Source: Blautia sp. (lineage in GTDB: Bacteria > Bacillota > Clostridia > Lachnospirales > Lachnospiraceae). Taken from it: a DNA stretch of 64,000 bases. Position 1 is the first letter of the stretch. Each line of letters begins with the position of its first letter. The stretch is from positions 14,972 through 78,971 of the forward strand of contig JAMPAC010000003.1 in the NCBI GenBank assembly GCA_023667395.1, written 5' to 3'. Both the position numbers and the translations under genes were made by a program. The notes beneath the pieces were generated by a model. It did no database searches. It was not told the DNA's origin and saw only the letters and a list, made by a program, of their open reading frames with translations. Positions 7,439-29,365 of the stretch are shown in pieces.

Positions 7439-8902
7439 ATGGCGAAAACAGGAAGCGCATCTCTTTCTGAGAAAGACAGGAAATTCAGGGAATTTGCATT
7501 GACGGGAAATTTGTGGCGGGTCATTTTTTATGTCTGCGTGCCGCTGGCTTTTTTTCAATTTATCAATCATCTCTTTAATATCCTGGATACCATGATGGCT
7601 TCCCATGTCAGCGCGCTGGCAGTGTCGGCGGTGGCATATCTGTCCCAGCTGCAGAACATGATCTCGGCGGTGGGGGGCGGCCTGGCGGCGGGCAGCACCC
7701 TGAAGATCAGCGAGGCATACGGGGCGGGGGATTACAGGATGGTGAAGAAGCGGCTGAGCACCCTGCTTGCGATCTGCGGCGGCATTTCGCTGGCTGTCCT
7801 CTGCCTGATTCCTTTTTCCTCCGGGCTGCTCCGGCTGTTTGGGACGCCGGAGGACTTTATCGCGGTAGGGGCCAGGTACTTTTCCGTCACACTGTTTTCC
7901 ACGGTGTTGAGTTTTTTTAATAATGTCTATATCGCCATTGAACGTTCCAGGGGCAATTCCAGGCGGATCCTGAAACTGAACATGTTCGTGGTTACGTTAA
8001 AGCTGGTTCTGACGGCAATCTTTATCTACGGGCTGAACGGGGACATCACCATGATAGCGGTGGCTACGGTGATTTCCCAGGTATTCCTGTTCGTGATGGC
8101 CATAAAGAACCTGTGCGCCGGGGACGACGCCTTTACCTTTGACCGCACGAGCATTGCCTTTAAGCGGCAGGTGGTGGCTCCCATGCTGAATCTGTCGTTT
8201 CCGGTGATCGTGGAGAAAGTGGCGTTTTCCTTTGGCAAGACGGTGGTGAATTCCATGAGCAAGAATTATGGTTCTACCACGGTGGGCGCGTTGGGGATCT
8301 CCAACAATATCAACGGTATGGTGACCGGCATCCACAACGGTTTCCAGGACGGCGGATCCTCCATCATCAGCCAGAATCTGGGGGCGGGGAATACGAAGCG
8401 CGCGCTGGGAACATTCTGGCGCCTGGCAGCCATCAACGCTGCCATCGGCGCGGTGGGACTGATTATATTGAACGTGTTCCTTGGGCCGATCACATGGCTT
8501 TTTGCAAACAGCACCGAGGGCTTTAACGAGGAGTTCCAGCAGCTGATCATGCATGTGTTCCGCTATGAGGCGCTGGGAGGCTGCATCCCCTTGGGAATCA
8601 ACGCCGCCTGTATGGCGCTGCTGTTCGGCTTTGGCAAGACGAAGCTGACGCTGGTATGTAATTTCAGCCGGGTATTTGTCTTCCGCATTCCCATCCTCTG
8701 GGCGCTGCAGAACTTTACGCGCCTGGGCAGCGAGAGCGTGGGTATTGTCATGGCGGCCAGCAACATCCTGACGGCAATGTTATCCTTTACGATCGTTATG
8801 CTGGTGATCCATAGGGTGAAAAAGGCGGAAAACGTGGAAAGGACGGAAAGCGTGGAGAGGACAGAGGGCGCTGAGCCGGAGGAGCAGGTTACTTCGGAGT
8901 GA
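7439..8902 (+). CDS. MATE-family efflux transporter
   Basis: 487 aa, about 12 predicted TM helices, typical MATE N-terminus (L..P....Q.......D..M), acidic C-terminal tail. Confidence 0.8.
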   Translation: MAKTGSASLSEKDRKFREFALTGNLWRVIFYVCVPLAFFQFINHLFNILDTMMASHVSALAVSAVAYLSQLQNMISAVGGGLAAGSTLKISEAYGAGDYRMVKKRLSTLLAICGGISLAVLCLIPFSSGLLRLFGTPEDFIAVGARYFSVTLFSTVLSFFNNVYIAIERSRGNSRRILKLNMFVVTLKLVLTAIFIYGLNGDITMIAVATVISQVFLFVMAIKNLCAGDDAFTFDRTSIAFKRQVVAPMLNLSFPVIVEKVAFSFGKTVVNSMSKNYGSTTVGALGISNNINGMVTGIHNGFQDGGSSIISQNLGAGNTKRALGTFWRLAAINAAIGAVGLIILNVFLGPITWLFANSTEGFNEEFQQLIMHVFRYEALGGCIPLGINAACMALLFGFGKTKLTLVCNFSRVFVFRIPILWALQNFTRLGSESVGIVMAASNILTAMLSFTIVMLVIHRVKKAENVERTESVERTEGAEPEEQVTSE

Positions 8903-9467
8903 GCCTGTCATACTGAACCTGGGAGATGCCTGTTGACAGGTATGTTTTTTCCTTGTAGAGCATTGTGTGGACAGCCTGTCCCCTGGTGTAATCTATTTGC
9001 TCTTTTGGGAAAAAGGAACGACAGAAATATTGTCCGGTATCGTCCTGCCTTGCGAGAAATATGTAAATGTCGTTTTCGGCAAAGGGGGTGGATAGCAGAT
9101 AGTCCGCTTCGATAAGGGAAAAGTGATTCAGTTTTTTGTTATAACGGAAAATCAACCGATTCTGGTCCAGAAGTGATTCTATTCGTGCGAGAGGCTGGAA
9201 TCGCTTTTCAATCAGGTGTAAATAGCGGCTTTTGGAAATCGTTTCGTAAGTAGTTTTTCCTGCAAGGATTTCATCAAAAGCGGCGCTTCGGCTTTGGGTG
9301 GCAATTCGTAAATCCTTTAGTTTTCCCAGCCCCATCAGGTGGTGAAAGTCAAGTTTTGAAAAGCGAATGCAAAGATCTGCGGTTTTTCCCTTCCGTCCAA
9401 TGACAATGCGATATTGTACGTCCAGCAATTTTTCATATGCACAGGCGCAAGTTTTAAGTCGATCCAT
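8889..9467 (-). CDS. PBECR4-like (Barnase/EndoU/RelE-fold) predicted nuclease-domain protein
   Basis: 192 aa from ATG 9467 (SD AGGAAGG 8 nt upstream). The longer ORF start at 9548 has no SD. The FSKLDFHHLMGLGKLKDL block resembles PBECR4-family proteins. The 3' end overlaps the MATE gene by 14 nt, convergently. Confidence 0.55.
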   Translation of the reverse strand: MDRLKTCACAYEKLLDVQYRIVIGRKGKTADLCIRFSKLDFHHLMGLGKLKDLRIATQSRSAAFDEILAGKTTYETISKSRYLHLIEKRFQPLARIESLLDQNRLIFRYNKKLNHFSLIEADYLLSTPFAENDIYIFLARQDDTGQYFCRSFFPKEQIDYTRGQAVHTMLYKEKTYLSTGISQVQYDRLTPK

Positions 9468-9680
9468 AATATGATCCTTCCTGTTATGTAAAAGACCGCC
9501 TTGCGAACACAAAGCGGCCTTGGGCATTTTCTTTCGACAGAAACCCATGGATAATCTGCCTACTCCGGTTTGAGGTTATTGCGCAACCCCTACTGAAAAC
9601 TCCGCATGGCAAGGCTTTCCGGTACGCTGCCACGTTTCAACGTTTTGACAGACACACGCCGTTGCCTGTCTGATAATATT

Positions 9681-13603: not shown

Positions 13604-16291
13604 ATGAAATGTCCATATTGTCACGAGGAGCAGGAGGGTTCTGTAAACTTTTGCATGTATTGCGGCAGCGTGCTGCCCAAAGAGGATAGTGAACCGAAAA
13701 AAAGCAGGAAGCCTCTCATCATTATCGCATCAGCCGTGGCAGCTGTTGCGGTAGTGGTGTTTTTTGTGGTTGCGCTCAGTGTTTTTGGAAGGACGGATGA
13801 GGAAAGGCTGCAGCGGCAGTTGGAACTGGGTGAGAGATACCTGAGTGAGATGAACTACGAAAGGGCGTTGGCGGCATATACGGCGGCGATCGAGATCGAA
13901 CCCCAGAACATAGAGGCGACCTGCGGTATGGCGCGCGCATATGCGGGTCTGGACGATTATGAGCAGGCGGAAAATGTGCTGCTCTCCCTGATCGAGACGC
14001 TGGAACAGGATGACTACAGGAAAAAACAGGAAGAACTTTATGCGACGCTGGCTGATATCTATCTGGAAAGCGGTGATTCAGACAGCGCCTGGTCTGCGAT
14101 ACAGCGGGGGACGGACCGTGCCGCCCGGGAAGATATCCTTTTGAACAGTCTGGATCCCATGAAGCGGGATACGGATGGAGACGGGCTCTTTGACGGTACG
14201 GAACTGCAGAACGGTTTTGATCCCAATCTGCGGGATACGGACGGCGACGGCGTACCGGACGGCAGGGAAGAATTTGGGCGTGTTGTGTCCATGCCCTCCG
14301 CAATACCGCAGGAAGACCAGATCTATCCCGTTGTCTGGGCGGAAGGACAGGGCGAGGCATATGGGGATTTTGATGCGGTATATCTGCGGAATAATGTTAC
14401 GCTCAGGGGAATCGGCAGCGTCAGGGGCATTCCCTGTGAATTCAGCGGGCAGAGCGATATGGAACAGGTCAGGATCGGTTTCTGTGTCCCGGAGGCATTG
14501 GCATCGGATACTTCCGGAAATCTCCAGGTTGCAGGTTATGATTATGAACAGAACAGGCTGGTTCTCCATGATACGTCCATAGAGAGCGCTGATGACGGTT
14601 CCGTCCTGGTTTTATCGGATACGGCGGAAGCGGGGACATACATGCTGGTAGACTGGGAACGCCTGAAAAGGGATACGGATGCGACGGAATTTTCCAGTAT
14701 CGTTGAATCAGGCAAGGCGGATGTGGTCTTCGTGATCGATACCACCGGCTCCATGAGTGGGCCGATCAGCAATGTGGAAGAAAACATTGTGGACTTTTCC
14801 CAATATCTGGCTGACCTGGGTGTGGATGTCCGCGTGGGCATTGTGGAGTACAAGGATATTTACGAGGATGGCAGCGGCAGTACGGTTGACCATGGATTTT
14901 ACTATGATCTGGATGAATTTAGAAGGGTGCTTGGAAATTTCAGGATCGATGGCGGCGGGGATGAGTATGAGACGGCAGTGGATGCGCTGGATGTCATGGC
15001 GGATATGGATTTTAGGAGCGGCGTGAATAAATTTGCCATTCTGGTGTCGGATACTGCTTATAAGGAAGGGACACAAAGCAATGCCGGTTATACCATGGAA
15101 CAGATGATCGGAACATTGGAATCCCAGAATATTTGTACAAGTGTTGTGACGAATTATTATCATTTTGATGAGTACAGAAAGCTTACATCCCGCACGAACG
15201 GAGAACTGTGTGATATTGATACGGATTTTGCTACATCGCTTCGCGGATTGATGGACAAGATGGGGACTATGGTGAACGAGGGAACTTGGGTGCGTCTGAC
15301 CAATGGCTCCGTGGTATGTCTGAACGAGGATCCTACGCTCAACAATACTTCCATAGACACAGACGGGGACGGTATCCCGGATCTGATGGAATTGGGGGAA
15401 ACGATCACGGTAAGTTATCGGAGCAGCCTGTCAGGGGAGGAGGTTGCCTTTGAGGCATACACATTCCAGTCCAACCCTGCCCTTGCTGATTCTGATGGGG
15501 ATGGCCTTGCGGATGACGTGGACGCGCGTCCGGTGCAGTGTGATATGGAAGCGTCCGCACTGGGCGTTCCCGGAACCTATTTAATGGTCGATACTGCGGA
15601 TGGAGGAAGCTCATATGGCGTGACAGGGGAGACGGCCATGAATTCCGGAATGGCTGCGATGGAGAATATGCTGTTATACCTGCAAAAGTATACGGGAAAT
15701 TTCTGGCTGACGGGATTTGATCCGACGAGGGAGAGTTATGCGCTGTCGGAGGTCCGGGATATGGCGGATGATCTGGAAAATATCCTTGCGTCACAGGATT
15801 TGCTGGTCATGGAAACGGAACCGGATCTGGAAAGTACGTTCCAGAAATCCAAAAAGCTGCTGAAGATCATAAAGCAATTGTATCGTGAAGCCGGGGTGGA
15901 AGAAAACGGATGTATCCGCGGCGGGAATATGGAACAATGCCTGTCTTTCTGTCTGGGTGGCATCATGACCTCTTATTACATGCCCTTTGGGGAATATTCG
16001 GAGGGAGAGATTTATCAGAGGATCTGCCAGGATATTGAACGGGGTTACCCCGTCATGCTGCAGACGGGTCTGGCCGGCAATGTGGAGTTGTTTGACAGTT
16101 CCGACCTGTCCGGTTCCTCAGTCCCGCTGGGAAGCATGGAGTGGCTGACCATCACAGGCTATGAACGCAATGGCATTGAGGGGACGATCGTGCTGGAAGT
16201 CCTCTATGACGGTGGGATGTATTACCTTGATTTCCGGCGGCTTATGGATGTGGATGCCCTGCTGGGCGGTATCGTGGGGATTGATTCGTAA
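13604..16291 (+). CDS. Membrane protein with zinc ribbon, TM helix, TPR, thrombospondin-type-3-like Ca-binding repeats and a vWA domain
   Basis: 895 aa. CPYC..CMYCG ribbon, TM helix (IIIASAVAAVAVVVFFVVALSVF), TPR-like segment, DTDGDG(L/V) repeats, and a vWA MIDAS motif (VVFVIDTTGSMSG). Confidence 0.75.
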   Translation: MKCPYCHEEQEGSVNFCMYCGSVLPKEDSEPKKSRKPLIIIASAVAAVAVVVFFVVALSVFGRTDEERLQRQLELGERYLSEMNYERALAAYTAAIEIEPQNIEATCGMARAYAGLDDYEQAENVLLSLIETLEQDDYRKKQEELYATLADIYLESGDSDSAWSAIQRGTDRAAREDILLNSLDPMKRDTDGDGLFDGTELQNGFDPNLRDTDGDGVPDGREEFGRVVSMPSAIPQEDQIYPVVWAEGQGEAYGDFDAVYLRNNVTLRGIGSVRGIPCEFSGQSDMEQVRIGFCVPEALASDTSGNLQVAGYDYEQNRLVLHDTSIESADDGSVLVLSDTAEAGTYMLVDWERLKRDTDATEFSSIVESGKADVVFVIDTTGSMSGPISNVEENIVDFSQYLADLGVDVRVGIVEYKDIYEDGSGSTVDHGFYYDLDEFRRVLGNFRIDGGGDEYETAVDALDVMADMDFRSGVNKFAILVSDTAYKEGTQSNAGYTMEQMIGTLESQNICTSVVTNYYHFDEYRKLTSRTNGELCDIDTDFATSLRGLMDKMGTMVNEGTWVRLTNGSVVCLNEDPTLNNTSIDTDGDGIPDLMELGETITVSYRSSLSGEEVAFEAYTFQSNPALADSDGDGLADDVDARPVQCDMEASALGVPGTYLMVDTADGGSSYGVTGETAMNSGMAAMENMLLYLQKYTGNFWLTGFDPTRESYALSEVRDMADDLENILASQDLLVMETEPDLESTFQKSKKLLKIIKQLYREAGVEENGCIRGGNMEQCLSFCLGGIMTSYYMPFGEYSEGEIYQRICQDIERGYPVMLQTGLAGNVELFDSSDLSGSSVPLGSMEWLTITGYERNGIEGTIVLEVLYDGGMYYLDFRRLMDVDALLGGIVGIDS

Positions 16292-16368
16292 ATCATCGGC
16301 ATGATTTCGTGTTTTGCCAAAGAAGTGATGATGGCGGCAAAATGGTCTGCCATGGAAGGAAATACACT

Positions 16369-18651
16369 ATGAATTTGCAGGGAACATATACGGATATTGT
16401 GGAGATCGGTTCGGGCGGCGGCGGTACCGTCTTCCGGGCATTCCATGTGCGCATGGAGAAATATGTGGTTCTCAAGAAGATCCATGACAATATCAAAGAT
16501 AATGTGGATATCCAGGGGGAACTGAATATCCTGAAAAATCTGCGTCACGAATATCTGCCGACGGTGTTGGATTTTATCCAGGACGAGGGTTCTGTTTATA
16601 CGGTAATGGACTATATTCCCGGGGAATCGTTTGAGAATCTCCTGAACCGGGGAATACGTTTTACCCAGGCGCAGGTGAAAAAATATGCCGAACAGCTGGG
16701 GAAGGTGCTTGCTTATCTGCATGGCAAGACCCCGTCCATTGTACATGGCGATATCAAACCGGCGAATCTCATGCTGACGCCGGAAGACAATATCTGCCTG
16801 ATCGATTTCAATATTTCCCAGCTGCAGAATGGTGTCCTGAATCGAAATATGGGGTATACGCCCGGATATGCCTCCCCGGAGCAGGTGCGTATCGTATTGA
16901 TGCTGCAGCAGTATTATGCGGGGATGGCATCTTCGCAGAATGTAAACGCCGGGAGTGGTACTGTGCTGTTGGGGGCGGACGGAGCGCCGGTGCAGAACGC
17001 AGCCGCCGGGAGTGGTACGGTGCTGCTGGGGGCGGACGGAGTGCCTGTGCAGAACGTGAGTGCCGGGAGTGGTACTGTGTTGCTGGGGGCGGACGGAGCG
17101 CCTGTGCAGAACGCAGCTGCCGGGAGCGGGACGGTGCTGCTGGGGGCGGAAAGTGTGCCCGTGCAGCCCGGACAGCAGTGGGTGATGCCTGCCCTTTCGG
17201 AGAAGATGGATGTGCGTTCGGACATTTACAGTGCGGGAGCCACCCTGTATGCCATTTTCAGTGGAACGATCCCCAATGCGGATTTCTCCCAGATCATGCC
17301 AATTGAACGCCTGATGCCCAATTGTTCGGAGGGACTTGCCCGGCTGATCGATACCAGCATGCAGTATTACCTGGACGACCGGTTCCAGAGCGCTGCGGAA
17401 TTTCTTAAGGCAGTGGCGGATATCGACAAGGTTGATAAACGGTACAAACATCTGGTGCTGCGCCAGAACCTGACAGCCGTGGGATGCATTTTGGGGGCGG
17501 CGGTCTGTTCCATCATCGCCATCCTGGGATGGCAGCAGATGGGGATGGAACAGGCGGCTTCTTACAATGTGCTGATAGACCGGATGGAGGAACTGCGCGG
17601 GGAAGACGGGCAGGAGGAACAGTTGGAGGATCTTTACATGGAGGCAGTTGCCGCTTTCCCGGAACAGGCGGATGCCTATTACCAAAAGGCTGCCAGTCTC
17701 TATGAAAACCGTGATTACGAGGGACTGGAACGTTTTATCGAAAGGGAAGTCCTGGATCATACGGGAAGTTTCTCTGACGAGGAGACGGCAGCATTCTATT
17801 TTCTGCTGGCTAATGCCTGCCTGGAACTGGATGATCTGGATGACGCGCTGACCTACTACCGCACGGCAGTCAGATATAATGCCCATGACAGCACATACTA
17901 TTCCGATTATGCCATTGCACTGGCCAGGTCCGGCGATCTGGAGAAAGCCTGGGAGATCCTGGAATCCGCAGAAGAAAAGGGAGTGTCCAATGACAGGATA
18001 TTGCTTGCCCGGGGGGAGATTGCCTCCAGGCAGGGAAACCGGGAGGAGGCAGCGGAATGCTTTGCCCATTGTATTGCGGAAACGAAAGATACTTATGTAA
18101 TGCTCCGGGCTTATATCATGTGGGGCAGATTGTATGACGATACGGATGAAGCAGGACTGTTACAGAAAGCGGCAATCCTCACAGAGGGACTGGAGAAAGT
18201 AGAAGACACGGACCGCGCCATGGTTCTGGAGCAGCTGGCCCAGAGTTATATCGACCTGGGAACATTGACCATGAACAACGATTATAATATGCAGGCGATC
18301 TCCTGCCTGCAGGAAATTGCGGACAGGGGATGGGACAGCTATGTGACCCACAGTAACATCGGCGTCCTGTACCAGGCGGTTGGAAACTATGAACTGGCGC
18401 TGCAGGAATTTTCCGATATGCTGGAGTTTTATGGGGAAGATTATCGGACTTATAAGAGGTTGGCTTTCCTGGAGGCAAGGATCCAGATGGCACGGGAAAA
18501 ATCTGACAGGGACTACAGTCTGTTTGTGGATTACTATGATAAAGCGCGCCAGCTGTTTGCAGACAGCAACGTACAGGCGGATTCCGACATGGAAATGCAG
18601 ATGTTGGAAACGGCGTATGAGGAACTGGAAGCGGGCAATTGGCTGCCTTAG
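16369..18651 (+). CDS. Hanks-type Ser/Thr protein kinase with TM helix and C-terminal TPR domain
   Basis: ATG 16369 with GGAAGGA SD. G-loop GSGGGGTV, VLKK lysine, catalytic loop HGDIKPAN, DFN, SPE and DIYSAG. TM helix LTAVGCILGAAVCSIIAILGW, then about 380 aa of TPR-like repeats. Confidence 0.85.
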   Translation: MNLQGTYTDIVEIGSGGGGTVFRAFHVRMEKYVVLKKIHDNIKDNVDIQGELNILKNLRHEYLPTVLDFIQDEGSVYTVMDYIPGESFENLLNRGIRFTQAQVKKYAEQLGKVLAYLHGKTPSIVHGDIKPANLMLTPEDNICLIDFNISQLQNGVLNRNMGYTPGYASPEQVRIVLMLQQYYAGMASSQNVNAGSGTVLLGADGAPVQNAAAGSGTVLLGADGVPVQNVSAGSGTVLLGADGAPVQNAAAGSGTVLLGAESVPVQPGQQWVMPALSEKMDVRSDIYSAGATLYAIFSGTIPNADFSQIMPIERLMPNCSEGLARLIDTSMQYYLDDRFQSAAEFLKAVADIDKVDKRYKHLVLRQNLTAVGCILGAAVCSIIAILGWQQMGMEQAASYNVLIDRMEELRGEDGQEEQLEDLYMEAVAAFPEQADAYYQKAASLYENRDYEGLERFIEREVLDHTGSFSDEETAAFYFLLANACLELDDLDDALTYYRTAVRYNAHDSTYYSDYAIALARSGDLEKAWEILESAEEKGVSNDRILLARGEIASRQGNREEAAECFAHCIAETKDTYVMLRAYIMWGRLYDDTDEAGLLQKAAILTEGLEKVEDTDRAMVLEQLAQSYIDLGTLTMNNDYNMQAISCLQEIADRGWDSYVTHSNIGVLYQAVGNYELALQEFSDMLEFYGEDYRTYKRLAFLEARIQMAREKSDRDYSLFVDYYDKARQLFADSNVQADSDMEMQMLETAYEELEAGNWLP
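16948..17175 (+). repeat. 57-bp in-frame tandem repeat, 4 copies, inside the kinase domain
   Basis: Encodes AGSGTVLLGADG(A/V)PVQN(AA/VS) four times, between the SPE motif (subdomain VIII) and the DIYSAG motif (subdomain IX). Confidence 0.9.
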
Positions 18652-18665
18652 GAACGGAGGATGAA

Positions 18666-18806
18666 ATGACGGGCGGAACATTAATGTTTTATGGAGGCAT
18701 TGCGGGGTGTATCCTGTTTCTGCTGCTGCTGGTGATCGTGCTGGCAACGGCGGGAAAGAGCAGGCGCAGACTGCTGAACAGGATACAGAAGGAGGGCGAG
18801 TTATGA
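18666..18806 (+). CDS. Unlisted 46-aa single-pass membrane micro-protein, translationally coupled to essC
   Basis: MTGGTLMFYGGIAGCILFLLLLVIVLATAGKSRRRLLNRIQKEGEL. GGAGG SD at 18654-18658. Its TGA (18804-18806) overlaps the essC ATG (18803-18805) as ATGA. It is below the 60-aa cutoff of the ORF track. Confidence 0.6.
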   Translation: MTGGTLMFYGGIAGCILFLLLLVIVLATAGKSRRRLLNRIQKEGEL

Positions 18807-21800
18807 GTATTGTCATATCTGCCTATGCGCAGGCGGCATTTTGCGAGTTCCTGCTGCCCGCGGTAAACAACGCGGATGAGGAGATTGAATTACAGAAAGG
18901 AATCTTCGCCCTGCCTGAGGACGTGATCCTGCGCCTGGAAGTGGTGGAAAAGCAATGGTTCCTGCGGGAGACGGAACAATATACTTTTTCCAGGCAGAAA
19001 GGGGAGCAGGGCGGTCCGCTGAGGGATGGGGATATTTTCAACGTTTCTGAAAAGCGGGGCAACAGGATCTCCCTGATCGTGCGGGAAACGGAAGTGGCGT
19101 TTTCCGTATTCCGCAAGTATGATATTACGGCCTTGCAGGGTCTGACCATAGGAAACGAGCCGGACAATCAGATCATCTATCAGTCCCAGGGACTGGTTTC
19201 CGGCCACCATGCCGTCCTGCAGCGCACTCCCCAGGGATTCTGCGTGCAGGATAAAAGTTCCAACGGTACCTTTGTGAACGGCAGGAAAGTGAATGGCTCA
19301 CAGGAACTGCGGATTGGGGACTGCATCAATATTTTCGGGCTGAAGCTGGTATATCTGGGCAGCCTGATCGCCATATATGCCCCTGCGGAAAACGAGTGCG
19401 TGGTGTCGGCCGCTATCCCGGGATATGTGCAGCCCGCCATTCCGGTACAGAAAGAGGCGGGCAAACCCCAAAAGGACAGGAAATTTTTCCATCGCGCTCC
19501 CAGAAATTATTTAAACCTGGAGACGGAGACCATAGAGATCGAGGCGCCGCCTGCACCCAGGGAGGAGAATAAGCGTCCCCTCTGGATGGTGATCGGGCCT
19601 TCCTTCACCATGATGATCCCCATGCTGCTGGGCAGCATGATGGCGATCCTGAATGCGCGTTCTTCCGGCAGCAATTCAGGCCTGTATATGTATACCGGTA
19701 TCATTACGGCAGCGGGAAGCGCGCTGATCGGTATCTTCTGGGCGCTGACCAATCTCCGTTATAATAAGAAAGAGATCCAGCGGGGTGAGGAGACAAGGTT
19801 CCAGGCCTATGGGGACTATTTGATAAAGCGGGCGGATTTTATCAGGGAAAAGTATGAAAAGAGCCGTAATATTTTACATACCATGTATCCTGCGGCGAGT
19901 GTGGTGACAAATTACGGCGAGGGCAGCGCCGCATTATGGAACAGGAATCCCAAGCATGCTGATTTCATGCTGCAGAGGCTGGGGGTCGGCAATATCCCCT
20001 TTCAGATGGGGATCAATATACCGAAAGAGCGTTTTACCCTGAAAAGCGATGAACTTTCCGATAAGCCCCGGATGATTAAGGAGGAGTACAGTACCCTTTA
20101 CGATGTGCCCGTGGGTGTGGATCTGCTTTCCCATAAACTGATCGGCGTGGTGGGCGGCTCCAAGAAGCAGGGCGCTTTCGACATCGTGAGGCTGTTGACG
20201 GCGCAGATCGCGGCAAACAACTGTTACACGGATGTGAAACTGGTTTATATTTATGACAGGAATGAGGATGAGGAGGACTGGGAATATGCCCGCTGGCTGC
20301 CCCACGTGTGGAGCGAGGACAAGAAGACGCGTTTTGTGGCCAGCGACAAGTCAGAGGCCAGCGACGTGTTGTTTGAACTGACGGGCGTATTGCGTATGCG
20401 TTCCGAGGACGAGCAGCTGAAGAAATGCACGCTGCCCAAGCCCTATTATGTGCTGGTGGTTTCGGACGTGGCATTGCTGGAAGGCGAACTGATCACAAAA
20501 TATATCTACGGCGGGGAGGCGTGCTGCGGACTGACGACCCTGATCCTGGCCGAGAGCAGGGAACAGCTTCCCAATGAGTGTGAATACCTGCTGCAGAAAG
20601 ACGGGGAGTTCTGCGGTATCTATAACCTGACGGATGAGGAGCATCTGGAAGTCCGCTTTGATACCGTGTCCCCGGAGCAGATGGAATGTTTTGCCAGAAG
20701 GCTGCTTCCCATTGAAGTGCGGGAGATGGAAAAAGGGCGTGACATTCCCAACAGCCTTACTTTCTTCGAGATGCACAACGTACAGCGGCTCGAGGAACTG
20801 GATGTGGAGGAACGCTGGCGCAAGAACCGTACTTATGAGAACATGAGGGCGCTTTTGGGTGTAAAGGGGGGCGGGGCTCCCTGTTACCTGGACGTGCATG
20901 AGAAATATCACGGCCCCCACGGGCTGGTGGCGGGTACCACAGGTTCCGGAAAATCCGAGACCCTGCAGACTTATATGCTGTCCATGGCCATTAATTTCAG
21001 TCCTGACGATATCGGATATTTCATCATCGACTATAAGGGAGGCGGCATGGCGGGGCTGTTTGACGGGCTGCCCCATATGATCGGATCCATCTCCAACCTG
21101 TCCGGCAACCAGGTGCGCCGGGCGATGGTCTCCATTAAGAGCGAAAACCGCAGACGGCAGAGGATCTTCAATGAGAACAATGTAAATAACATCAACCTTT
21201 ACACGAAGCTTTATAAAAACGGGGAGGCGACCATACCCATTCCCCATATGTTCATTATCATAGACGAGTTTGCGGAATTGAAGCGGGAAGAGCCCGAGTT
21301 CATGAAAGAACTGATTTCCGTGGCGCAGGTGGGACGAAGCCTGGGCGTGCATCTGATCCTTGCCACCCAGAAACCCAGCGGCACGGTGGACGATAATATC
21401 TGGAGCAATGCAAAATTCCGTCTCTGCCTGCGGGTACAGGACAGACAGGACAGCAATGACATGCTGCACAAGCCGGATGCCGCTTATATCACGCAGGCAG
21501 GGCGCGGATATCTGCAGGTGGGCAATGACGAGGTTTATGAACTGTTCCAGTCCGGCTACAGCGGAGCCACATATGAGGAGAACGGGGCGAATGTGAAGAC
21601 GGAGATCGCTTCCATGATCTCCCTGCCCGGCAAGGCGGCATTGGTGGGCAACAGCCTGAAGAGCAGGCAGCAGAGCCAGAGGCGTAACGCCTGGGTGCAG
21701 AAACTGCTGCAGACAGTGAGGGCTGCAGCGGATGAAATGCAGCTTCCGGTTCCGGCTTATGCGGCGGCGCCGGATCGAATCGATCTGTTTTATGCGCAGG

Positions 21801-23779
21801 CGGAACAGCGGAAACTGGATTATCCGTATTCGGATTACAATGCCCGCAGGGTGGAGGATCTGATCCAACTCTATGCGGAGGAGTACGGACAACTGGAAGC
21901 CCGTCCCCTGGACGAACAGGCCCAGGCAGTCATAGACAGGGCGGACAGGCAGCACAGGAAACTTCCCGAGGCAAAGGGGAAGACCCAGCTGGATGCGGTT
22001 ATTGCCTACCTGGGGAAAGTGGCGGAGAAAGAGGGCTACGACCACCAGATGCAGCTGTGGATGCCCCTGCTGCCTAAGATGATGTATCTGAAAGAACTGA
22101 AAGGCTATGAGAAAGGCGTTTATGATGGGAAAAGCTGGCCGGATGCCGCAGGAAGCGGCAAATGGAACCTTGCGGTTCCCGTGGGATTATGCGATGATCC
22201 GGTGAACCAGGCACAGATGCCTTTGATCATCAATTTCACGGAAGGCGGAAATGTGGCTGTCTGCGGCATGATCGTAAGCGGCAAGAGCAGCTTCATGCAG
22301 ACGCTGCTGTTTTCCCTGATCAGCCGCTATCGACCGGACTGGCTGAATATTTATGCCATCGATTTCAGCAGCAGGATGCTTTCCTGTTTTGAACAGGCTC
22401 CCCATGTGGGCGGCGTGATGTATGAGGATGACGGGGAGAAGATTGACAAATTCTTCCATATCATGGAAGGCATCATTGAAGAGCGGAAGAAACTCTTCCG
22501 GGGAGGCAATTATGCCCAGTATGTGCAGGCCAACGGGGTGAAAGTTCCGGCAGTGGTGATAGCCATTGATAATGTGGGTGCTTTCCGGGAGAAGACGGAA
22601 AACAAGTATGACGACAGACTGCTGCGCCTGACAAAAGAAGGCGTAAGCTATGGGATTTACCTGGTATTGTCTGCAACAGGCTTTTCCTCCACGGAGATCA
22701 CCACGAAGATGGGGGACAATATCAAGACGGTCATCTGCCTGCAGATGAATGACAAATACGCCTATACGGACGCAATGCGCGTGAGCGGGCTGGAAGTGCT
22801 TCCGGAGAGCAATGTGAAAGGAAGGGGTCTTGCCCTGGTGGGCGAAAACGCATTGGAATTCCATACGGCGCTGGCTCTGGAGGCGGAGGATGACTTTAAG
22901 CGTATGGAAGCGGTAAGCGAGGTCTGTGCGCAGATGCGGGCAGGCTGGACAGGGGACTGCGCGAAGACCATCCCTGTCATTCCCGAGAAGCCTGTGTGGG
23001 CGGAATTCGAGCAGCTGCCGGATGTGCGCAGGCTGCAGGCGGAGAACCGTTATCTGCCCATCGGATATGACATGGGCAGCGCGGATATATACAGCATCGA
23101 CTTAGGCAGGACATTTACATATCTGATCTCCGGAAGATCGCGTACCGGCAAGACAAATCTCCTGAAGGCGGTGATCCGCTCCGCTGCTGCCAAAGAGGGC
23201 AGGCTCGTGATCATAGAGCATGAGGCTGCGGATCTGAAGTCTGCGGCCCAGGCCGCCAGCGCGGAATATATAGACAGCCAGAAGACCCAGGCGGATTTCT
23301 TCTCCGGACTGGTGGAACCTTTTAAACAGCGGAATCAGAAGAAACGTGCGCTGATAGAACAGGGAAAGGAGGAAGCCGAGATCTATCAGGCAATGCAGGG
23401 GGAGAAGCCATACTTTGTCGTGGTTTCAGACCTTGGCGCCTTTGTGCGGTCCGTTCAGAAGAAAGAAGAAGGGGTCCTGAACATTAAGGGATTCGTGGAA
23501 AATATTGCAGAAAAGGGCAAGCTTCATAATGTCTTTTTCTTCTTCGGAATCAATCCTGACGCCCTGGAAGGGGCATTGGGCACCAGACTTTATAATGCGT
23601 TTACCGGATACCATACCGGAATCCACCTGGGAGGTGCGGTCACCAATATCCGCTATTTTGATTTCAGCAATGTGACCTATATGGAGCAGAGCAAGACGCA
23701 GAAAGTGGGAATCGGCATGATTCCCCTGGGTAATGAGGATATGGCGGAAAAAGTGGTTATTCCGTTAGTCAGGGGGTAG
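18803..23779 (+). CDS. essC: T7SSb FtsK/SpoIIIE-family ATPase EssC
   Basis: 1658 aa from ATG 18803 (GGAGGG SD). FHA-like N-terminus (GHHAVLQ...SSNGTFVNG), two TM helices, D1 GLVAGTTGSGKSE...IIDYKGGGMA...FIIIDEFAELK, D2 VSGKSS, D3 RSRTGKTN. Confidence 0.92.
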   Translation: MSIVISAYAQAAFCEFLLPAVNNADEEIELQKGIFALPEDVILRLEVVEKQWFLRETEQYTFSRQKGEQGGPLRDGDIFNVSEKRGNRISLIVRETEVAFSVFRKYDITALQGLTIGNEPDNQIIYQSQGLVSGHHAVLQRTPQGFCVQDKSSNGTFVNGRKVNGSQELRIGDCINIFGLKLVYLGSLIAIYAPAENECVVSAAIPGYVQPAIPVQKEAGKPQKDRKFFHRAPRNYLNLETETIEIEAPPAPREENKRPLWMVIGPSFTMMIPMLLGSMMAILNARSSGSNSGLYMYTGIITAAGSALIGIFWALTNLRYNKKEIQRGEETRFQAYGDYLIKRADFIREKYEKSRNILHTMYPAASVVTNYGEGSAALWNRNPKHADFMLQRLGVGNIPFQMGINIPKERFTLKSDELSDKPRMIKEEYSTLYDVPVGVDLLSHKLIGVVGGSKKQGAFDIVRLLTAQIAANNCYTDVKLVYIYDRNEDEEDWEYARWLPHVWSEDKKTRFVASDKSEASDVLFELTGVLRMRSEDEQLKKCTLPKPYYVLVVSDVALLEGELITKYIYGGEACCGLTTLILAESREQLPNECEYLLQKDGEFCGIYNLTDEEHLEVRFDTVSPEQMECFARRLLPIEVREMEKGRDIPNSLTFFEMHNVQRLEELDVEERWRKNRTYENMRALLGVKGGGAPCYLDVHEKYHGPHGLVAGTTGSGKSETLQTYMLSMAINFSPDDIGYFIIDYKGGGMAGLFDGLPHMIGSISNLSGNQVRRAMVSIKSENRRRQRIFNENNVNNINLYTKLYKNGEATIPIPHMFIIIDEFAELKREEPEFMKELISVAQVGRSLGVHLILATQKPSGTVDDNIWSNAKFRLCLRVQDRQDSNDMLHKPDAAYITQAGRGYLQVGNDEVYELFQSGYSGATYEENGANVKTEIASMISLPGKAALVGNSLKSRQQSQRRNAWVQKLLQTVRAAADEMQLPVPAYAAAPDRIDLFYAQAEQRKLDYPYSDYNARRVEDLIQLYAEEYGQLEARPLDEQAQAVIDRADRQHRKLPEAKGKTQLDAVIAYLGKVAEKEGYDHQMQLWMPLLPKMMYLKELKGYEKGVYDGKSWPDAAGSGKWNLAVPVGLCDDPVNQAQMPLIINFTEGGNVAVCGMIVSGKSSFMQTLLFSLISRYRPDWLNIYAIDFSSRMLSCFEQAPHVGGVMYEDDGEKIDKFFHIMEGIIEERKKLFRGGNYAQYVQANGVKVPAVVIAIDNVGAFREKTENKYDDRLLRLTKEGVSYGIYLVLSATGFSSTEITTKMGDNIKTVICLQMNDKYAYTDAMRVSGLEVLPESNVKGRGLALVGENALEFHTALALEAEDDFKRMEAVSEVCAQMRAGWTGDCAKTIPVIPEKPVWAEFEQLPDVRRLQAENRYLPIGYDMGSADIYSIDLGRTFTYLISGRSRTGKTNLLKAVIRSAAAKEGRLVIIEHEAADLKSAAQAASAEYIDSQKTQADFFSGLVEPFKQRNQKKRALIEQGKEEAEIYQAMQGEKPYFVVVSDLGAFVRSVQKKEEGVLNIKGFVENIAEKGKLHNVFFFFGINPDALEGALGTRLYNAFTGYHTGIHLGGAVTNIRYFDFSNVTYMEQSKTQKVGIGMIPLGNEDMAEKVVIPLVRG

Positions 23780-23782
23780 GCC

Positions 23783-24517
23783 GTGATATCTATGCTTGTG
23801 TATGACAGCAGCAAGGCGGAACTGCAGGAAGTGAAACGACAGATTTATGACCTGGCGGCATGCCTGACAGATGAAAAGTGGGATGTGGCCTGTTTTTCCG
23901 ACTTAAGGGAGACGGAGGCTTTCTGCGCCGGGAATCCATTGCTTCACCTGGCCTGCTATGACGTGACGGAGGCTGGCAGTCTGGACTGCCTGAGCAGGAT
24001 CCGGAGCGGACAGGCTGATATGCTGCTGATGTTGGTCGCTGATGGGAAGATGTCTCCCATGGAGTATGTCAGGCCGGATATTTTTGCTTCCAGCCTGATC
24101 ATACGTCCCTTCGGGTCAGGATTGCTGCGGGACAAACTGCGCGATCTGATCCTGAAATATCTGGAGAGGCTGGAGCAGGATGATTCCGCAGAATGTTTCA
24201 TGCTGGATACGAAAGAGGGCGTGACCTCCATCCCTTACCGCAGGATCTATTACATGGAAGCCAGGGACAAGCGGATTTATCTGCGTCTGTGCGACAGGGA
24301 ATATGCATTTTACGGCACCATGGATGAACTGGAACGACGGCTTCCGGATAGCTTTTTGCGCTGCCACAGGAGTTTCCTGATAAACCGTCAGTACGTGGAG
24401 AAGATACTGCTTACACAGGGGGAGATTCATCTCTCCCATGGGATCACGGTACCGCTTTCGCGCAGTTATAAGCCGTGTTTCAAACAATTTTGGCAGGAGC
24501 GGTTATGGAAGAATTGA
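23783..24517 (+). CDS. LytTR-family DNA-binding regulator with a degenerate receiver-like N-terminus
   Basis: 244 aa. LytTR domain (IPYRRIYYMEARDKRIYLRL...FLRCHRSFLINRQYV). The N-terminal CheY-like fold has the conserved Lys-Pro replaced by Arg-Pro. GTG start lies 6 nt after AGGGGG. Confidence 0.8.
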   Translation: MISMLVYDSSKAELQEVKRQIYDLAACLTDEKWDVACFSDLRETEAFCAGNPLLHLACYDVTEAGSLDCLSRIRSGQADMLLMLVADGKMSPMEYVRPDIFASSLIIRPFGSGLLRDKLRDLILKYLERLEQDDSAECFMLDTKEGVTSIPYRRIYYMEARDKRIYLRLCDREYAFYGTMDELERRLPDSFLRCHRSFLINRQYVEKILLTQGEIHLSHGITVPLSRSYKPCFKQFWQERLWKN

Positions 24518-25161
24518 TCATTCTGCCGCAGCGGGAGTTCCAGGTGCTTGCAGCGGCATGGGGAATCGGGGAAATATTCGGGGTATGTCCCAGGGAAGAT
24601 ATGAGCGGTCTGGGACGGTCAGACCTACTGTATATTGTTCATGAAATGGCGCAGAAGAATATTTTGAAATTCGATGGCGCCAGATATGAGGTGCAGGAAC
24701 CCTATCGTTCCGTCCTGTGTTCCATCAGGGAAGCGGAACAGATCCTGGCGGTGGAGGATAGGGACGGATACGCATCAGTCTTTTATTTTGGCAGGGCGCT
24801 GGTCTGCCTGGAGGAAAGCGTGCAGGATGAGGACGCGGTACGCATCGGGATTTACGATCCGGGAAAATGCCGCAGTGTGCTGGAGGAGAAAGGGTTTCTG
24901 CCGCAGCCTTGCCCGGAGGGGAACCTGGCCGTCCTGCAGACCGAGGATGAGGCGGGGGAATGGCTGGAAAACGTTTCCGCAGGGGGCAGTGTGCCATATG
25001 TGTTCCGTTATCGGATCTTTGACAGCCTTAAGAGCCTGCAGGCGGAATATGATCTGGTGGAGGGCCCTTTTAACGATTGGATCGTGCATAAGAGCGGGGA
25101 AGAATTGCAGATTTCCCGCTATGACGGACAGCGTTTATATGAAAAACTTGTAATAAAATAG
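24505..25161 (+). CDS. Hypothetical soluble protein, T7SS-locus associated
   Basis: 218 aa from ATG 24505, overlapping the LytTR gene stop by 13 nt. No TM helix or motif recognised. Confidence 0.6.
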   Translation: MEELIILPQREFQVLAAAWGIGEIFGVCPREDMSGLGRSDLLYIVHEMAQKNILKFDGARYEVQEPYRSVLCSIREAEQILAVEDRDGYASVFYFGRALVCLEESVQDEDAVRIGIYDPGKCRSVLEEKGFLPQPCPEGNLAVLQTEDEAGEWLENVSAGGSVPYVFRYRIFDSLKSLQAEYDLVEGPFNDWIVHKSGEELQISRYDGQRLYEKLVIK

Positions 25162-25192
25162 CTTCTTAAGAAAGTGAAAAGACGGAAGCAGA

Positions 25193-25456
25193 ATGGAGGG
25201 GATGACTTTGATCCTGGTGGATGTGGTGGCGCCCAGTGTGGACAAAACATATGATTTTAAATTGGATGAAAATGCGCCGATCGCGCTGGTGGTGGAAGAG
25301 ATCACAGAAATGATCAGCCGCAGGGAACATTGCGAGATGATAGGCGATAAGGAGGATGTGCTGCTGTGCCGCTATGACGGGCAGGTAGTGCTGAACAGGC
25401 TTTCCTCCCTGAAAGACAGCGGAATAACGGACGGAACCCGTTTATTGCTGCTGTGA
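25193..25456 (+). CDS. esaB: YukD/EsaB-like ubiquitin-fold T7SS protein
   Basis: 87 aa. Beta-grasp-like pattern (LILVDV...KTYDFKLDENAPI...) with a C-terminal GITDGTRLLLL. Size and position are typical of EsaB/YukD. Confidence 0.6.
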   Translation: MEGMTLILVDVVAPSVDKTYDFKLDENAPIALVVEEITEMISRREHCEMIGDKEDVLLCRYDGQVVLNRLSSLKDSGITDGTRLLLL

Positions 25457-25511
25457 CCATGACAGGCCGGCTTCCTGCAGGTCCGATATTCGGAATGGAT
25501 GTGCAGCCCGT

Positions 25512-25541
25512 AAAAAGTGCAGTTCATCCATGAAAAAGTGC
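25512..25541 (+). promoter_or_regulatory. Candidate LytTR operator: two identical 9-bp direct repeats separated by 12 bp
   Basis: aaaaagtgc at 25512-25520 and again at 25533-25541, 21 bp centre to centre. It lies in the 152-bp gap before the WXG gene array and downstream of the LytTR gene. Confidence 0.45.
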
Positions 25542-25608
25542 CGTCTGTCAGATCAGTGGACAAAAAGCGGGAAAATATGGTAAAGTATGGACAGTGAAAG
25601 GAGCCGAT

Positions 25609-25968
25609 ATGTTTCATACGAATGTCAGGGCGATGGATGGCGCCGCAGATGGATTGGAGCGACAACTGAGAAAGCTGAAGCAGGCAACAGAGGCTGTCCG
25701 GGATGTACGGAGCAGGCTGAACGGGTTGTCCGGCATGGACAATGTTCGCCGGAACCTGGACAGCGAGCTTTCCGGCATGGAGCAGGAGCAAAGGAATCTT
25801 CTCTCGCTGCTTGCAGCGCTCAGAATGGCAGCGCGCTGTTATGCGGATTGTGAACGGCGGATCATCGATTATGCGGAGTGCGGAAGACGTCAGGCGGCCG
25901 TGTCTGCGTGGTACATGGTAAACCTGAGCGGCGAAGTGAGGAATCTGGCGGAACAAATAATCTTTTAG
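25609..25968 (+). CDS. Small helical protein, first gene of the WXG array
   Basis: 119 aa from ATG 25609 (AAAGGAG SD 25597-25603). Predicted coiled/helical with no WXG motif. Confidence 0.6.
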   Translation: MFHTNVRAMDGAADGLERQLRKLKQATEAVRDVRSRLNGLSGMDNVRRNLDSELSGMEQEQRNLLSLLAALRMAARCYADCERRIIDYAECGRRQAAVSAWYMVNLSGEVRNLAEQIIF

Positions 25969-25977
25969 CGGAAAGGT

Positions 25978-26292
25978 ATGGTTATTGGTATGGCGGATAA
26001 TATTGAGACAAATACAGGCATGATGGAGCGGGACGTAGACAGCCTGAAAGAGGCGTTGAACCGTGTGCGTCAGGATATGAAGGGGATGTTTGACGCAGTC
26101 ATGGAACTGAACGGCATGTGGAGCGGGCAGGCGAACGAAGCTTTCAACCGCCAGTTTCAGCTGGACAGTGAACTGTTTGCGTCCTTATGTGAAGAGGCGG
26201 AGGGCATTATTGAAAGCATGGATAACGCAAAGGATGCCTATAACAGGTGCGAGGCTGAGGTTAGCCAGGAGATCGGGCGGATCCGGCTTTAA
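25978..26292 (+). CDS. WXG100-family protein (WSG)
   Basis: About 100 aa. Central motif MWSGQANEAF in a helix-turn-helix hairpin. An alternative start is ATG 25990. Confidence 0.75.
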   Translation: MVIGMADNIETNTGMMERDVDSLKEALNRVRQDMKGMFDAVMELNGMWSGQANEAFNRQFQLDSELFASLCEEAEGIIESMDNAKDAYNRCEAEVSQEIGRIRL

Positions 26293-26335
26293 CAGGAAGG
26301 CCCTGGAGATGATTTGGATAGCAGGAGGTGTAAAG

Positions 26336-26689
26336 ATGGCAGAGTGGAACACGGATACCATGACGGGCTTTGGCGGTTCGGTCAGCTTTCACGTGGAGCC
26401 GGAAATGCTGAAAAGCAAGAGCGCGGAGGTGTCCCGCATTGTGAGCCGGATGCGGGAACATTTTGGGGAATTGAAGAATTTGATGGAGAAGACCGCCGGT
26501 TACTGGATCGGTGAAGCGGGTGATAAGCACCGGCAGATGTATAAGGATATTGAGGACAATGTGGAAGAGATGCTGAAGCGGCTGGGAGAATATCCGGTGG
26601 ATCTTCTGGCGATCGCTAAAAATTATACGGATGTGGAACTATCCATAGAAGAGGATATTGAGACATTGCCGGACGATATCATTGTGTAA
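26336..26689 (+). CDS. WXG100-family protein (WIG) with a C-terminal DDIIV tail
   Basis: 117 aa from ATG 26336 (AGGAGG SD). Motif YWIGEAGDKH. Ends ...EEDIETLPDDIIV. Confidence 0.75.
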   Translation: MAEWNTDTMTGFGGSVSFHVEPEMLKSKSAEVSRIVSRMREHFGELKNLMEKTAGYWIGEAGDKHRQMYKDIEDNVEEMLKRLGEYPVDLLAIAKNYTDVELSIEEDIETLPDDIIV

Positions 26690-26699
26690 GGAGGAAGCC

Positions 26700-27095: not shown

Positions 27096-27117
27096 CAGGA
27101 CGCCCGTATCTCATTAT

Positions 27118-27147
27118 TTAAGTGTATTATGAAAAATCACATATAAT
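27118..27147 (+). promoter_or_regulatory. Candidate sigma-A promoter for esxA
   Basis: TTAAGT (27118-27123), an 18-nt spacer, then TATAAT (27142-27147), followed by AGGAGG and ATG 27174. Confidence 0.5.
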
Positions 27148-27173
27148 ACAATTCATTTTAAGGAGGAAATATC

Positions 27174-27473: not shown

Positions 27474-27516
27474 TGATCGAAAAATCATGAAAAATAGGTA
27501 AAGGAGACATAAGGAT

Positions 27517-29294: not shown

Positions 29295-29365
29295 TGTCTG
29301 CCTGTGGACATATGGCTCCAGGTGTGTTTAGATAGAATGGGAAACAGCAGAAACGGAGGTTTGTT

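Follow-up and report, generated by a model that had tools for sequence, protein, structure and literature searches.

What takes the place of EssB in a type VII secretion system (T7SS) that lacks it? The T7SS of gut Clostridia are almost unstudied, and the assembly and control of their EssB-less variants is an open question. It is posed here by a T7SS locus of about 19 kb (13604 to 32404, + strand) in a 64,000-nucleotide stretch of a Blautia sp. genome (contig JAMPAC010000003.1; the whole stretch is called the window below), in which the gene of a membrane-anchored Ser/Thr kinase lies close to that of the EssC ATPase. The initial annotation, made from the window alone, suggested that this kinase may occupy the position of the EssB pseudokinase as an active enzyme, possibly as an ancestral-type or regulatory version of the contact between EssB and the FHA-bearing EssC. 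Our analysis points instead to a kinase of the TsxD type; together with a PP2C-family phosphatase, a protein composed of a VWA domain, a transmembrane (TM) helix and an FHA domain (VWA-TM-FHA), and the FHA domain of EssC itself, it would probably, by its sequence and by analogy with other systems, form a threonine-phosphorylation switch that turns the T7SS on.

The initial reading of the kinase as catalytically intact was fully borne out. Its cytoplasmic part scores 124 bits with the Pfam family Pkinase (PF00069, cut-off 31.7; E 8.6e-36) and carries the complete set of Hanks motifs: the glycine-rich loop GSGGGG (residues 14–19), VLKK with K36, the alpha-C glutamate E51, HGDIKPAN (126–133), DFN (146–148), SPE (169–171), DIYSAG (285–290) and R338. 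In an alignment of 24 diverse orthologues (42–73% identity) G14–G19, K36, E51, D128, N133, D146, E171, D285 and R338 are invariant, and of the 120 best database relatives almost every one contains HGDIKPAN, DFN and the G-loop. Since the catalytic residues do not vary across orthologues of 38–71% identity, the enzymatic activity appears to be under selection, and with all catalytic residues kept the kinase is apparently active. Its closest profile and structural matches are kinases of the PknB/Stk1/PrkC type: hhalign of the kinase family profile against the M. tuberculosis PknB kinase domain gave 99.8% probability (E 3e-30), and Foldseek against the PDB ranked S. aureus PknB/Stk1 first (template modelling score 0.74), followed by PknA, PknI, PknE and eukaryotic kinases including PAKs. 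From these relatives it differs in being a non-RD kinase (HGD), in having DFN in place of DFG, in a disordered insert of 85–110 residues between APE and alpha-F, and in carrying a TPR ectodomain where they have PASTA repeats.

The overall architecture is likewise as first described, with a single TM helix (368–388) and a large TPR domain (Pfam TPR matches at 407–570). Basic residues (KRYKH..R) on the N-terminal side of the helix indicate an N-in bitopic topology, and the AlphaFold2 model (mean predicted local distance difference test, pLDDT, of 79) has a kinase fold, a single long membrane helix and an all-helical part at 416–755. A mechanical list of open reading frames (ORFs) offers an alternative upstream GTG start at 16309; the orthologues begin at MNLQ.

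Does this architecture make the kinase a relative of EssB? The EssB/YukC pseudokinase of T7SSb (PDB 4ANN, 4ANO, 2YNQ, 6Z0F) does share with it a cytoplasmic kinase fold, one TM helix, a helical ectodomain, a gene within a T7SS locus and a partner EssC with an N-terminal FHA domain. The EssB-like topology noted at the outset stands as far as the bitopic N-in arrangement, the helical extracytoplasmic domain and the T7SS locus are concerned, but bacterial receptor kinases such as PknB, PknD and PpkA normally have the order kinase–TM–extracytoplasmic domain, which is not specific to EssB. Comparison of the kinase family profile by hhalign with S. aureus EssB-N (the 4ANN sequence, recovered through a PDB search) and with the EssB C-terminal domain returned probabilities of 1.6% and 0.17%, respectively. 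YukC (PF10140) was not matched by the cytoplasmic part in Pfam at E <= 10, T7_EssB (TIGR03926) was not among the best 25 of the 30 NCBIfam matches of the kinase at E <= 0.1, and the Foldseek PDB top 50 consisted of active Hanks kinases, with neither EssB nor YukC among them. On the hhalign, Pfam and Foldseek results we rejected homology to EssB; the structural affinity beyond the generic kinase fold that the initial annotation proposed to look for did not appear among these matches, and its ancestral variant is without support.

Two further differences separate the proteins. In EssB the catalytic residues are degenerate and ATP is not bound, whereas all catalytic residues are intact here; and EssB is a fixed core gene of T7SSb, whereas the kinase gene changes its place in the locus and also has paralogues outside T7SS. 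The possibility that an EssB is hidden at another place in the locus was rejected: the sole unassigned cytoplasmic protein of EssB-N size (p228 of the ORF list) is EspG-like and unlike EssB-N. No ORF of the locus or its flanks matched a YukC, EssB, EsaA or EssA model, and none of the four was seen in the orthologous loci examined. Overall, sequence and model comparisons indicate that the relationship of the kinase to EssB goes no further than the fold class and a common receptor-kinase topology.

A better match is found among the TsxD proteins. Garrett, Higginson and Palmer, who in 2024 defined the subtypes T7SSc to T7SSj, described the membrane kinases TscD, TsdD, TseD and TsjD (TsxD) as active kinases found where T7SSb has the EssB pseudokinase, gave TsxD the status of a 'core component' and reported a TPR C-terminus for TsjD (PMC11217815). 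The kinase of the window has the TsxD architecture (an N-terminal kinase domain whose active site is conserved, then a single TM helix and a C-terminal domain outside the cytoplasm), and its gene co-localises with TsxC, TsxA and TsxB genes in 9 of 11 lineages of its clade. With TsxD kinases, and especially with TsjD, it has in common the membrane-anchored N-terminal Ser/Thr kinase, the conserved active site, the helical extracytoplasmic C-terminus and an EssB-like topology free of EssB sequence similarity. Its features place it as a TsxD-type T7SS-associated receptor Ser/Thr kinase, the likeness to TsjD being one of description only. An active membrane kinase in place of EssB is already published and hence not new here. 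Given that study and a 2026 paper in which TsxD models superpose on the bitopic arrangement of the EssB-like TraF (PMC13037476), the central idea of the initial annotation was already in print, and the kinase finding is confirmatory rather than surprising. What the present analysis adds is a kinase–micro-peptide module, the pairing of this module with FHA-ABC exporters, an array of TVLL motifs, an EspG-like protein and a locus of mixed T7SSi/j-like composition.

The genomic context of relatives defines how closely the kinase is tied to secretion. More than 100 full-length relatives (38–71% identity) were found, mostly in Lachnospiraceae metagenome assemblies. Context was sampled from seven relatives looked up individually and from a genome scan with one genome per species, which gave the best 80 loci (all loci are labelled L below), T7SS genes being recognised within ±10 kb by tblastn with the T7SS proteins of the window. 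Within the clade of the window, 9 of 11 lineages keep the kinase gene in a T7SS locus of the same gene content; the other two (L003, 38% identity; L020, 51%) have no T7SS gene within 10 kb of the kinase. The position of the gene is not fixed. As initially annotated, only the micro-ORF separates it from essC in the window, but the window is alone in this among the arrangements listed: one to several zinc-ribbon genes stand between the kinase gene and essC in L005, L087 and L088, the kinase precedes LytTR-essC in L089, and in L001 and L090 it follows the PP2C gene at the very 3' end of the locus. From seven orthologous arrangements a conserved slot directly upstream of essC was rejected. Of the proposed active enzyme in the position of EssB there remains a T7SS-dedicated kinase in an EssB-less locus; affinity to EssB and a constant position fall away. 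Because it resides in T7SS loci of 9 of 11 lineages at varying positions, the kinase is better regarded as a dedicated but modular partner.

These counts also bear on a further objection, namely that the protein belongs with the general envelope-signalling kinases (PrkC/IreK type) and merely neighbours T7SS genes. Homologues at 29–39% identity, as well as the closer P0099 (51%) and P0115 (38%), indeed have no T7SS genes within 10 kb. A chance neighbour, however, would hardly stay co-localised in 9 of 11 clade lineages despite rearrangements, nor does this account fit the overlap of the micro-ORF stop with the essC start or the co-conservation of PP2C and FHA genes in the same locus, and we consider it barely credible.

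The relatives outside T7SS loci are informative in another respect. A neighbour-joining tree of kinase domains revealed a sister clade of the same architecture, from Dorea, Mediterraneibacter, Faecalicatena, Bariatricus and Lachnospiraceae bacterium CE91-St61. All of its 10 loci have a small FHA protein beside the module; in 6 of them a zinc-ribbon-TM-TPR protein and an FHA-FHA-ABC-2 exporter flank it as well, whereas the stretch examined of the other 4 shows no exporter. The initial annotation had counted orthologues found routinely away from T7SS genes as grounds for doubt, and this has come true in part, in that same-architecture homologues adjoin FHA-ABC transporters. In the CE91-St61 locus (L024 5447–13121, AP025573.1) the order is zinc-ribbon-TM-TPR, FHA-FHA-ABC-2 exporter (768 aa), small FHA protein, kinase (kinase–TM–TPR) and micro-peptide; L021, L026, L029, L032 and L044 are listed with it for the order of this paralogous module. 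To judge by these sequences, the common denominator of the T7SS and sister-clade modules is an FHA-bearing membrane ATPase, as in PknF/Rv1747. A different kinase, of about 950–1000 aa, stands upstream of essC in T7SS loci whose EssC shares about 48% identity with that of the window; its TM helix is followed by a beta-propeller-like (PQQ_2) ectodomain (946–977 aa in L041 9989–12895, L070 and L083, from Hungatella / Acetatifactor metagenome-assembled genomes). Since related T7SS loci carry this beta-propeller kinase upstream of essC, the sensor part seems exchangeable. A 188-aa ORF follows the beta-propeller kinase gene in L041.

The most constant companion of the kinase is the micro-ORF. A homologous ORF of 38–59 aa (mostly 43–48 aa) lies 3' of the kinase gene in 39 of 43 sequences (the window and 42 loci; for example at L005 12284, L024 11980 and L003 12062), and it is kept after the kinase gene in all non-T7SS loci scanned as well. 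The encoded peptide has a single TM helix, a basic KKRRK(L/M)I(D/E)KIQ-like tail and no match in Pfam. In the window its stop overlaps the essC ATG (18803) by 4 nt; its companion gene is nevertheless the kinase, not essC. On this distribution kinase and micro-peptide form a two-gene module, and the varied genomic contexts of the relatives suggest that the pair is a portable sensor module whose constant partner is an FHA-bearing membrane ATPase. Genes for zinc-ribbon-TM-TPR proteins accompany the kinase in both T7SS and non-T7SS loci.

How might such a kinase act on an FHA-bearing ATPase? A possible answer lies in an unusual insert in its C-lobe. SPE and DIYSAG are 113 residues apart in the kinase of the window, the usual spacing being about 10–15 residues, and the hhalign alignment with PknB puts the additional sequence exactly between SPEQ and DxRSD(I/V)YS. 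Residues 189–272 of the insert are predicted to be disordered (AlphaFold2 pLDDT <50). A tandem repeat in the gene encodes here four AGSGTVLLGA(D/E)G.PVQN units, with threonines T198, T217, T236 and T255. Across the family the APE-to-alpha-F segment ranges in length from about 30 to 150 residues and shows little conservation apart from one short motif, which takes forms such as GTVLLN, STVLLGA, KTVLLD, RTVLLE, ATVILPG and GTVMLNH. Among 24 diverse members, 20 contain the pattern T-[VMLE]-[LIM]-L, with 62 occurrences in total as compared with 1.4 ± 1.1 in composition-preserving shuffles (maximum 6 in 2000), and the motif is 40-fold denser in the insert than elsewhere in the kinase protein. Of 67 hydrophobic triplets, 62 are preceded by Thr and none by Ser, while +3 is invariably Leu. 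The array comprises 0–6 copies, and near-identical strains differ in copy number (proteins of 718, 736, 754 and 802 aa) through gain or loss of 54–57-nt repeats.

A related T-x-x-[LI] motif is found 20–45 residues before the FHA domain in the cytoplasmic linker of VWA-TM-FHA orthologues (KTHMLF in the window; GKTEML, MTVML, ETVLI, ETVVL and ETVLIL in others). FHA domains bind phosphothreonine and not phosphoserine, with selectivity at +3. Because an invariant Thr and a hydrophobic +3 residue in disordered segments match this specificity, we regard the TVLL threonines as candidate phosphothreonine docking sites for FHA domains. That TVLL(D/N/E) might instead resemble a SUMO-interaction motif and serve YukD, which is ubiquitin-like, was rated low, since its Thr is invariant and it is also present in one kinase adjoining an FHA-ABC exporter (L013) and right before FHA domains. 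L013 is the one such kinase that has it; TVLL as a general motif of the FHA-ABC clade proteins was rejected, as it did not extend to them. The insert array is possibly new, and neither it nor the partner micro-peptide is described by Garrett et al. (2024).

The candidate readers of these sites differ in their equipment. The FHA domain of the VWA-TM-FHA protein keeps all three phosphothreonine-binding motifs (G-R 471–472, SEKH 487–490, SSNGT 507–511). The EssC FHA domain (EssC N-terminus, 18803–19522) has as its top PDB sequence match the FHA domain of Rv1747 (6CAH, E 2.8e-8), followed by EmbR, OdhI and GarA; the FHA domain of T7SSb EssC is not among its PDB matches at E <= 1. Rv1747, EmbR, OdhI and GarA all have kinase-regulated FHA domains. 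In EssC the phosphate-binding Arg is replaced by Asn118 in the window and by Asn or Ser (G-N/G-S) throughout the clade; S-x-x-H and N-G are retained despite the loss of G-R. More distant relatives (L089, L012) retain G-R. L012 encodes (9143–9679) a stand-alone protein resembling the N-terminal FHA region of EssC (36% identity over residues 1–177, G-R kept), directly upstream of a TVLL-bearing kinase of the same kinase–TM–TPR architecture, with VWA-TM-FHA and PP2C genes nearby; the L012 stretch examined contains no EssC ATPase gene.

Taken together, these elements are consistent with the following sequence of events. The TPR ectodomain would sense an envelope or contact signal, perhaps jointly with the zinc-ribbon-TM-TPR-VWA protein and the small peptide. 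The kinase would then phosphorylate the threonines in the G-T-V-L-L-x motifs of its own disordered insert and, in the VWA-TM-FHA protein, the comparable T-x-x-L motif of the juxtamembrane linker. FHA domains would dock on the pT-x-x-L sites, with VWA-TM-FHA as the likeliest reader and EssC as a possible one, and this docking would assemble or activate the EssC ATPase until the PP2C phosphatase resets the switch; the kinase may additionally act as a membrane scaffold. The regulatory link between kinase and FHA domain raised in the initial annotation is plausible in this light. We put forward more tentatively, and with appreciable doubt, an extended form of the proposal, in which the insert would be a self-phosphorylated, multivalent G-pT-V-L-L-x array recruiting several FHA domains (of VWA-TM-FHA and/or the EssC hexamer), so that the kinase is both switch and assembly platform of the EssB-less T7SS, the ~45-aa peptide is an obligatory subunit, motif valency sets the firing threshold, and the same kinase–peptide module gates FHA-fused ABC exporters in other Lachnospiraceae.

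Several observations weigh against a phosphorylation switch. With the Arg missing from the clade, EssC may bind its partner independently of phosphate, as T7SSb EssC binds EssB. TVLL motifs cannot be essential to the T7SS link, because some T7SS-linked orthologues are without them (P0087/L010). HGD (non-RD) kinases often have no activation-loop control. The context counts, moreover, cover ±10 kb around the kinase gene. The first of these points, together with the absence of detectable EssB, EsaA and EssA from the locus and its orthologues, would be expected if the kinase were a substitute for EssB: a core structural subunit, probably a dimer, that binds the EssC FHA domain without phosphate in the manner of YukC/EssB, with catalysis secondary or tuning the contact. 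The shared bitopic topology, the EspG-like rather than pseudokinase-like nature of p228 (the only other candidate of EssB-N size), the superposition of TsxD models on TraF (PMC13037476) and the 'core component' rank of TsxD in Garrett et al. point the same way. Such a role is at odds with the lack of sequence affinity or ranked structural affinity to EssB, with the unconserved position relative to essC, and with the service of the same module to FHA-ABC exporters or its occurrence alone, while strict catalytic conservation, a co-conserved PP2C and a canonical FHA reader point to phosphotransfer as the selected function. We therefore consider a primarily structural role unlikely, if still worth serious attention; it is not exclusive of the switch, with which a scaffold is compatible.

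A different target for the same enzymes is offered by the LytTR protein, whose gene lies directly 3' of essC in orthologous loci. Kinase and PP2C could act mainly on this regulator, or on another transcription factor, and thereby set T7SS expression. The protein has a receiver-like N-terminus (with no Pfam Response_reg match), its gene is kept beside essC in every one of these loci, no cognate histidine kinase was found within the locus, and Garrett et al. cite IreK-dependent T7SS induction in E. faecalis and suggest a role in transcription for TsiN (PMC11217815). Control of this kind would leave unexplained the membrane-anchored FHA protein, the EssC FHA domain and the TVLL and T-x-x-L motifs beside FHA domains, and the FHA-ABC paralogue loci have no LytTR gene; we give it a low probability and retain the phosphorylation switch as the preferred explanation.

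The features of the locus are compiled below. In gene order it encodes the zinc-ribbon-TM-TPR-VWA protein, the kinase, the micro-ORF, EssC, the LytTR protein, a 218/228-aa protein, YukD, a 124-aa protein, five WXG100-like proteins, a 437-aa candidate substrate, two DUF4176 proteins, the VWA-TM-FHA protein and the PP2C phosphatase.

Features of the kinase gene and of the surrounding T7SS locus (positions in the window; residues where stated)
Feature	Positions	Strand	Details
Kinase gene	16369–18651	+	760 aa; ATG 16369, TAG 18651, GGAAGGA ahead of ATG
Kinase domain layout			Hanks-type Ser/Thr kinase, residues 1–355; TM helix, 368–388; extracytoplasmic TPR domain, about 395–760
Tandem repeat in kinase gene	16948–17166	+	57 nt x 3.6 copies / 114 nt x 1.9 (Tandem Repeats Finder)
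Micro-ORF	18666–18806	+	46-aa single-pass membrane peptide, MTGGTLMFYGGIAG...KSRRRLLNRIQKEGEL
Zinc-ribbon protein	13604–16291	+	895 aa; Pfam Zn_Ribbon_1 2–23, TPR_19 81–136, VWA 373–543
EssC/TsxC ATPase	18803–23779	+	1658 aa; TIGR03928 1105 bits vs cut-off 778; Pfam FHA 115–177, FtsK_SpoIIIE
LytTR protein	23783–24517	+	Pfam LytTR E 8e-23; similar to TsiN
EspG-like chaperone candidate	24505–25161	+	218 aa; ATG 24505; ORF list gives GTG 24475 (p228)
YukD/EsaB ubiquitin-like protein (TsxB)	25193–25456	+	Pfam YukD E 2.3e-8
Five WXG100-like genes	25978–27831	+	Pfam WXG100 E 1.4e-9 and 1.5e-13; TIGR03930
WXG100-like genes, individually	25978–26292; within 26168–26689; within 26658–27095; 27174–27473; 27517–27831	+	
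437-aa candidate substrate and two DUF4176 genes	27981–29985	+	weak WXG100-like N-terminus; DUF4176 E 3.1e-21
VWA-TM-FHA protein	29990–31621	+	543 aa; Pfam FHA E 6.4e-17, VWA_2
PP2C-family Ser/Thr phosphatase (TsxF-like)	31655–32404	+	249 aa; Pfam PP2C_2 E 2.1e-13; kept in orthologous loci

The zinc-ribbon protein has a cytoplasmic zinc ribbon, a TM helix at residues 38–62 and an extracytoplasmic TPR / TSP3 / VWA part; with a zinc ribbon and one TM helix it is TsxK-like, and a candidate co-sensor or envelope-spanning component. The VWA-TM-FHA protein starts with a signal peptide and an extracytoplasmic VWA domain, followed by the TM helix (340–363), the cytoplasmic linker with K-T-H-M-L-F (T429) and the FHA domain. 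For p228 no sequence-family match and no PDB sequence match was obtained, but its best AlphaFold2 model (pLDDT 83; only one of five models was confident, from an alignment of 6 sequences) had EspG1/3/5 of mycobacterial T7SS as all of its Foldseek PDB top 12 (E 4.5e-6 to 3e-4, template modelling score about 0.6), and the gene is kept after the LytTR gene in orthologous loci. The WXG100 genes, the 437-aa protein (helical N-terminus, Lys/Glu-rich middle, Gly-rich C-terminus) and the DUF4176 genes are probably a cassette of substrates and helpers. A scan of the locus for promoters and terminators returned a promoter-like count equal to that of shuffled sequence and terminator-like matches of weak consensus only. 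Flanking ORFs encode ClpC, RadA, MatE, a two-component pair, Ddl and others. A protein with a PBECR4 (phage-Barnase-EndoU-ColicinE5/D-RelE-like) nuclease domain (8889–9548, - strand, E 1.6e-41) is encoded 4 kb upstream of the T7SS locus, and a 763-aa protein whose sole match is a weak N-terminal cyclic-nucleotide-binding domain (33095–35386, - strand) directly downstream.

The locus yields a compact hypothesis defined at sequence level: four threonines of the kinase (T198, T217, T236 and T255) and one of the VWA-TM-FHA protein (T429), a canonical FHA reader and a PP2C eraser. Because threonines, reader and eraser are all specified, the proposed phosphorylation control of a non-canonical T7SS is directly testable. 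The pairing of the kinase–peptide module with either FHA-EssC or FHA-ABC exporters further suggests a general mode of gating membrane ATPases in Lachnospiraceae.

Among described T7SS subtypes the locus has no exact counterpart. Garrett et al. list as companions of the kinases PP2C (TsxF), FHA proteins (TsxJ) and zinc-ribbon single-TM proteins (TsxK), and propose threonine phosphorylation control of the kinase-bearing subtypes, drawing the analogy with type VI secretion systems (T6SS) (PMC11217815). TsxD clusters and the locus of the window are alike in combining a TsxC ATPase, WXG100 and YukD-like proteins, PP2C, an FHA protein and a zinc-ribbon single-TM protein. No Ig-like TsjI (signal peptide and C-terminal TM helix) and no DUF6382 protein was found in the locus, which sets it apart from T7SSj; its FHA protein is VWA-TM-FHA where the T7SSj/T7SSe counterpart is DUF6382-FHA, and its EssC has G-N, whereas TsjC, which keeps S-x-x-H and N-G too, has a G-R conserved in 100% of sequences (Table S1 of PMC11217815). 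The order EssC(FHA)-LytTR-EspG-like-YukD with scattered WXG100 genes is T7SSi-like, T7SSi having TsiC with FHA domains of poor G-R motif, the LytTR protein TsiN, the EspG-like TsiG and TsiB; but the published description of T7SSi covers Vallitalea only and has no kinase (PMC11217815), and the window adds kinase, PP2C and FHA protein, with no TsiM-like P-loop protein found. The best 80 genome matches included no Clostridium or Vallitalea locus. From its gene content the locus fits no single described subtype, appearing as a T7SSi-like core combined with a T7SSj/T7SSe-like phospho-module.

Beyond the T7SS, the logic of the proposed switch is, by analogy, that of the T6SS PpkA/PppA/Fha and the PknF/Rv1747 pathways. 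The locus of the window and the T6SS PpkA/PppA/Fha (TagH) pathway have three locus-encoded parts in common (PMC3953482), namely a bitopic Hanks kinase whose sensor domain is extracytoplasmic, a phosphatase of the PP2C family and a protein with an FHA domain; to these the FHA domain of EssC is added, and in both the proposed logic is gating after translation. The secretion machine is a different one, the host of the window is monoderm, and the VWA domain, which in P. aeruginosa is part of PpkA, is here part of the FHA protein; in the T6SS of Agrobacterium the phosphothreonine is on TssL (PMC3953482). With the FHA-fused ABC exporter Rv1747 of M. tuberculosis and its kinase PknF the likeness lies in the EssC FHA domain, which is closest to that of Rv1747, and in the sister clade, which adjoins FHA-FHA-ABC-2 exporters. 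The phospho-acceptor threonines of Rv1747 lie in a disordered linker (PMC3138270, PMC8339232), whereas in the Blautia locus it is the kinase and a separate FHA protein that carry the acceptor-like motifs, and the ATPase to be controlled would be EssC.

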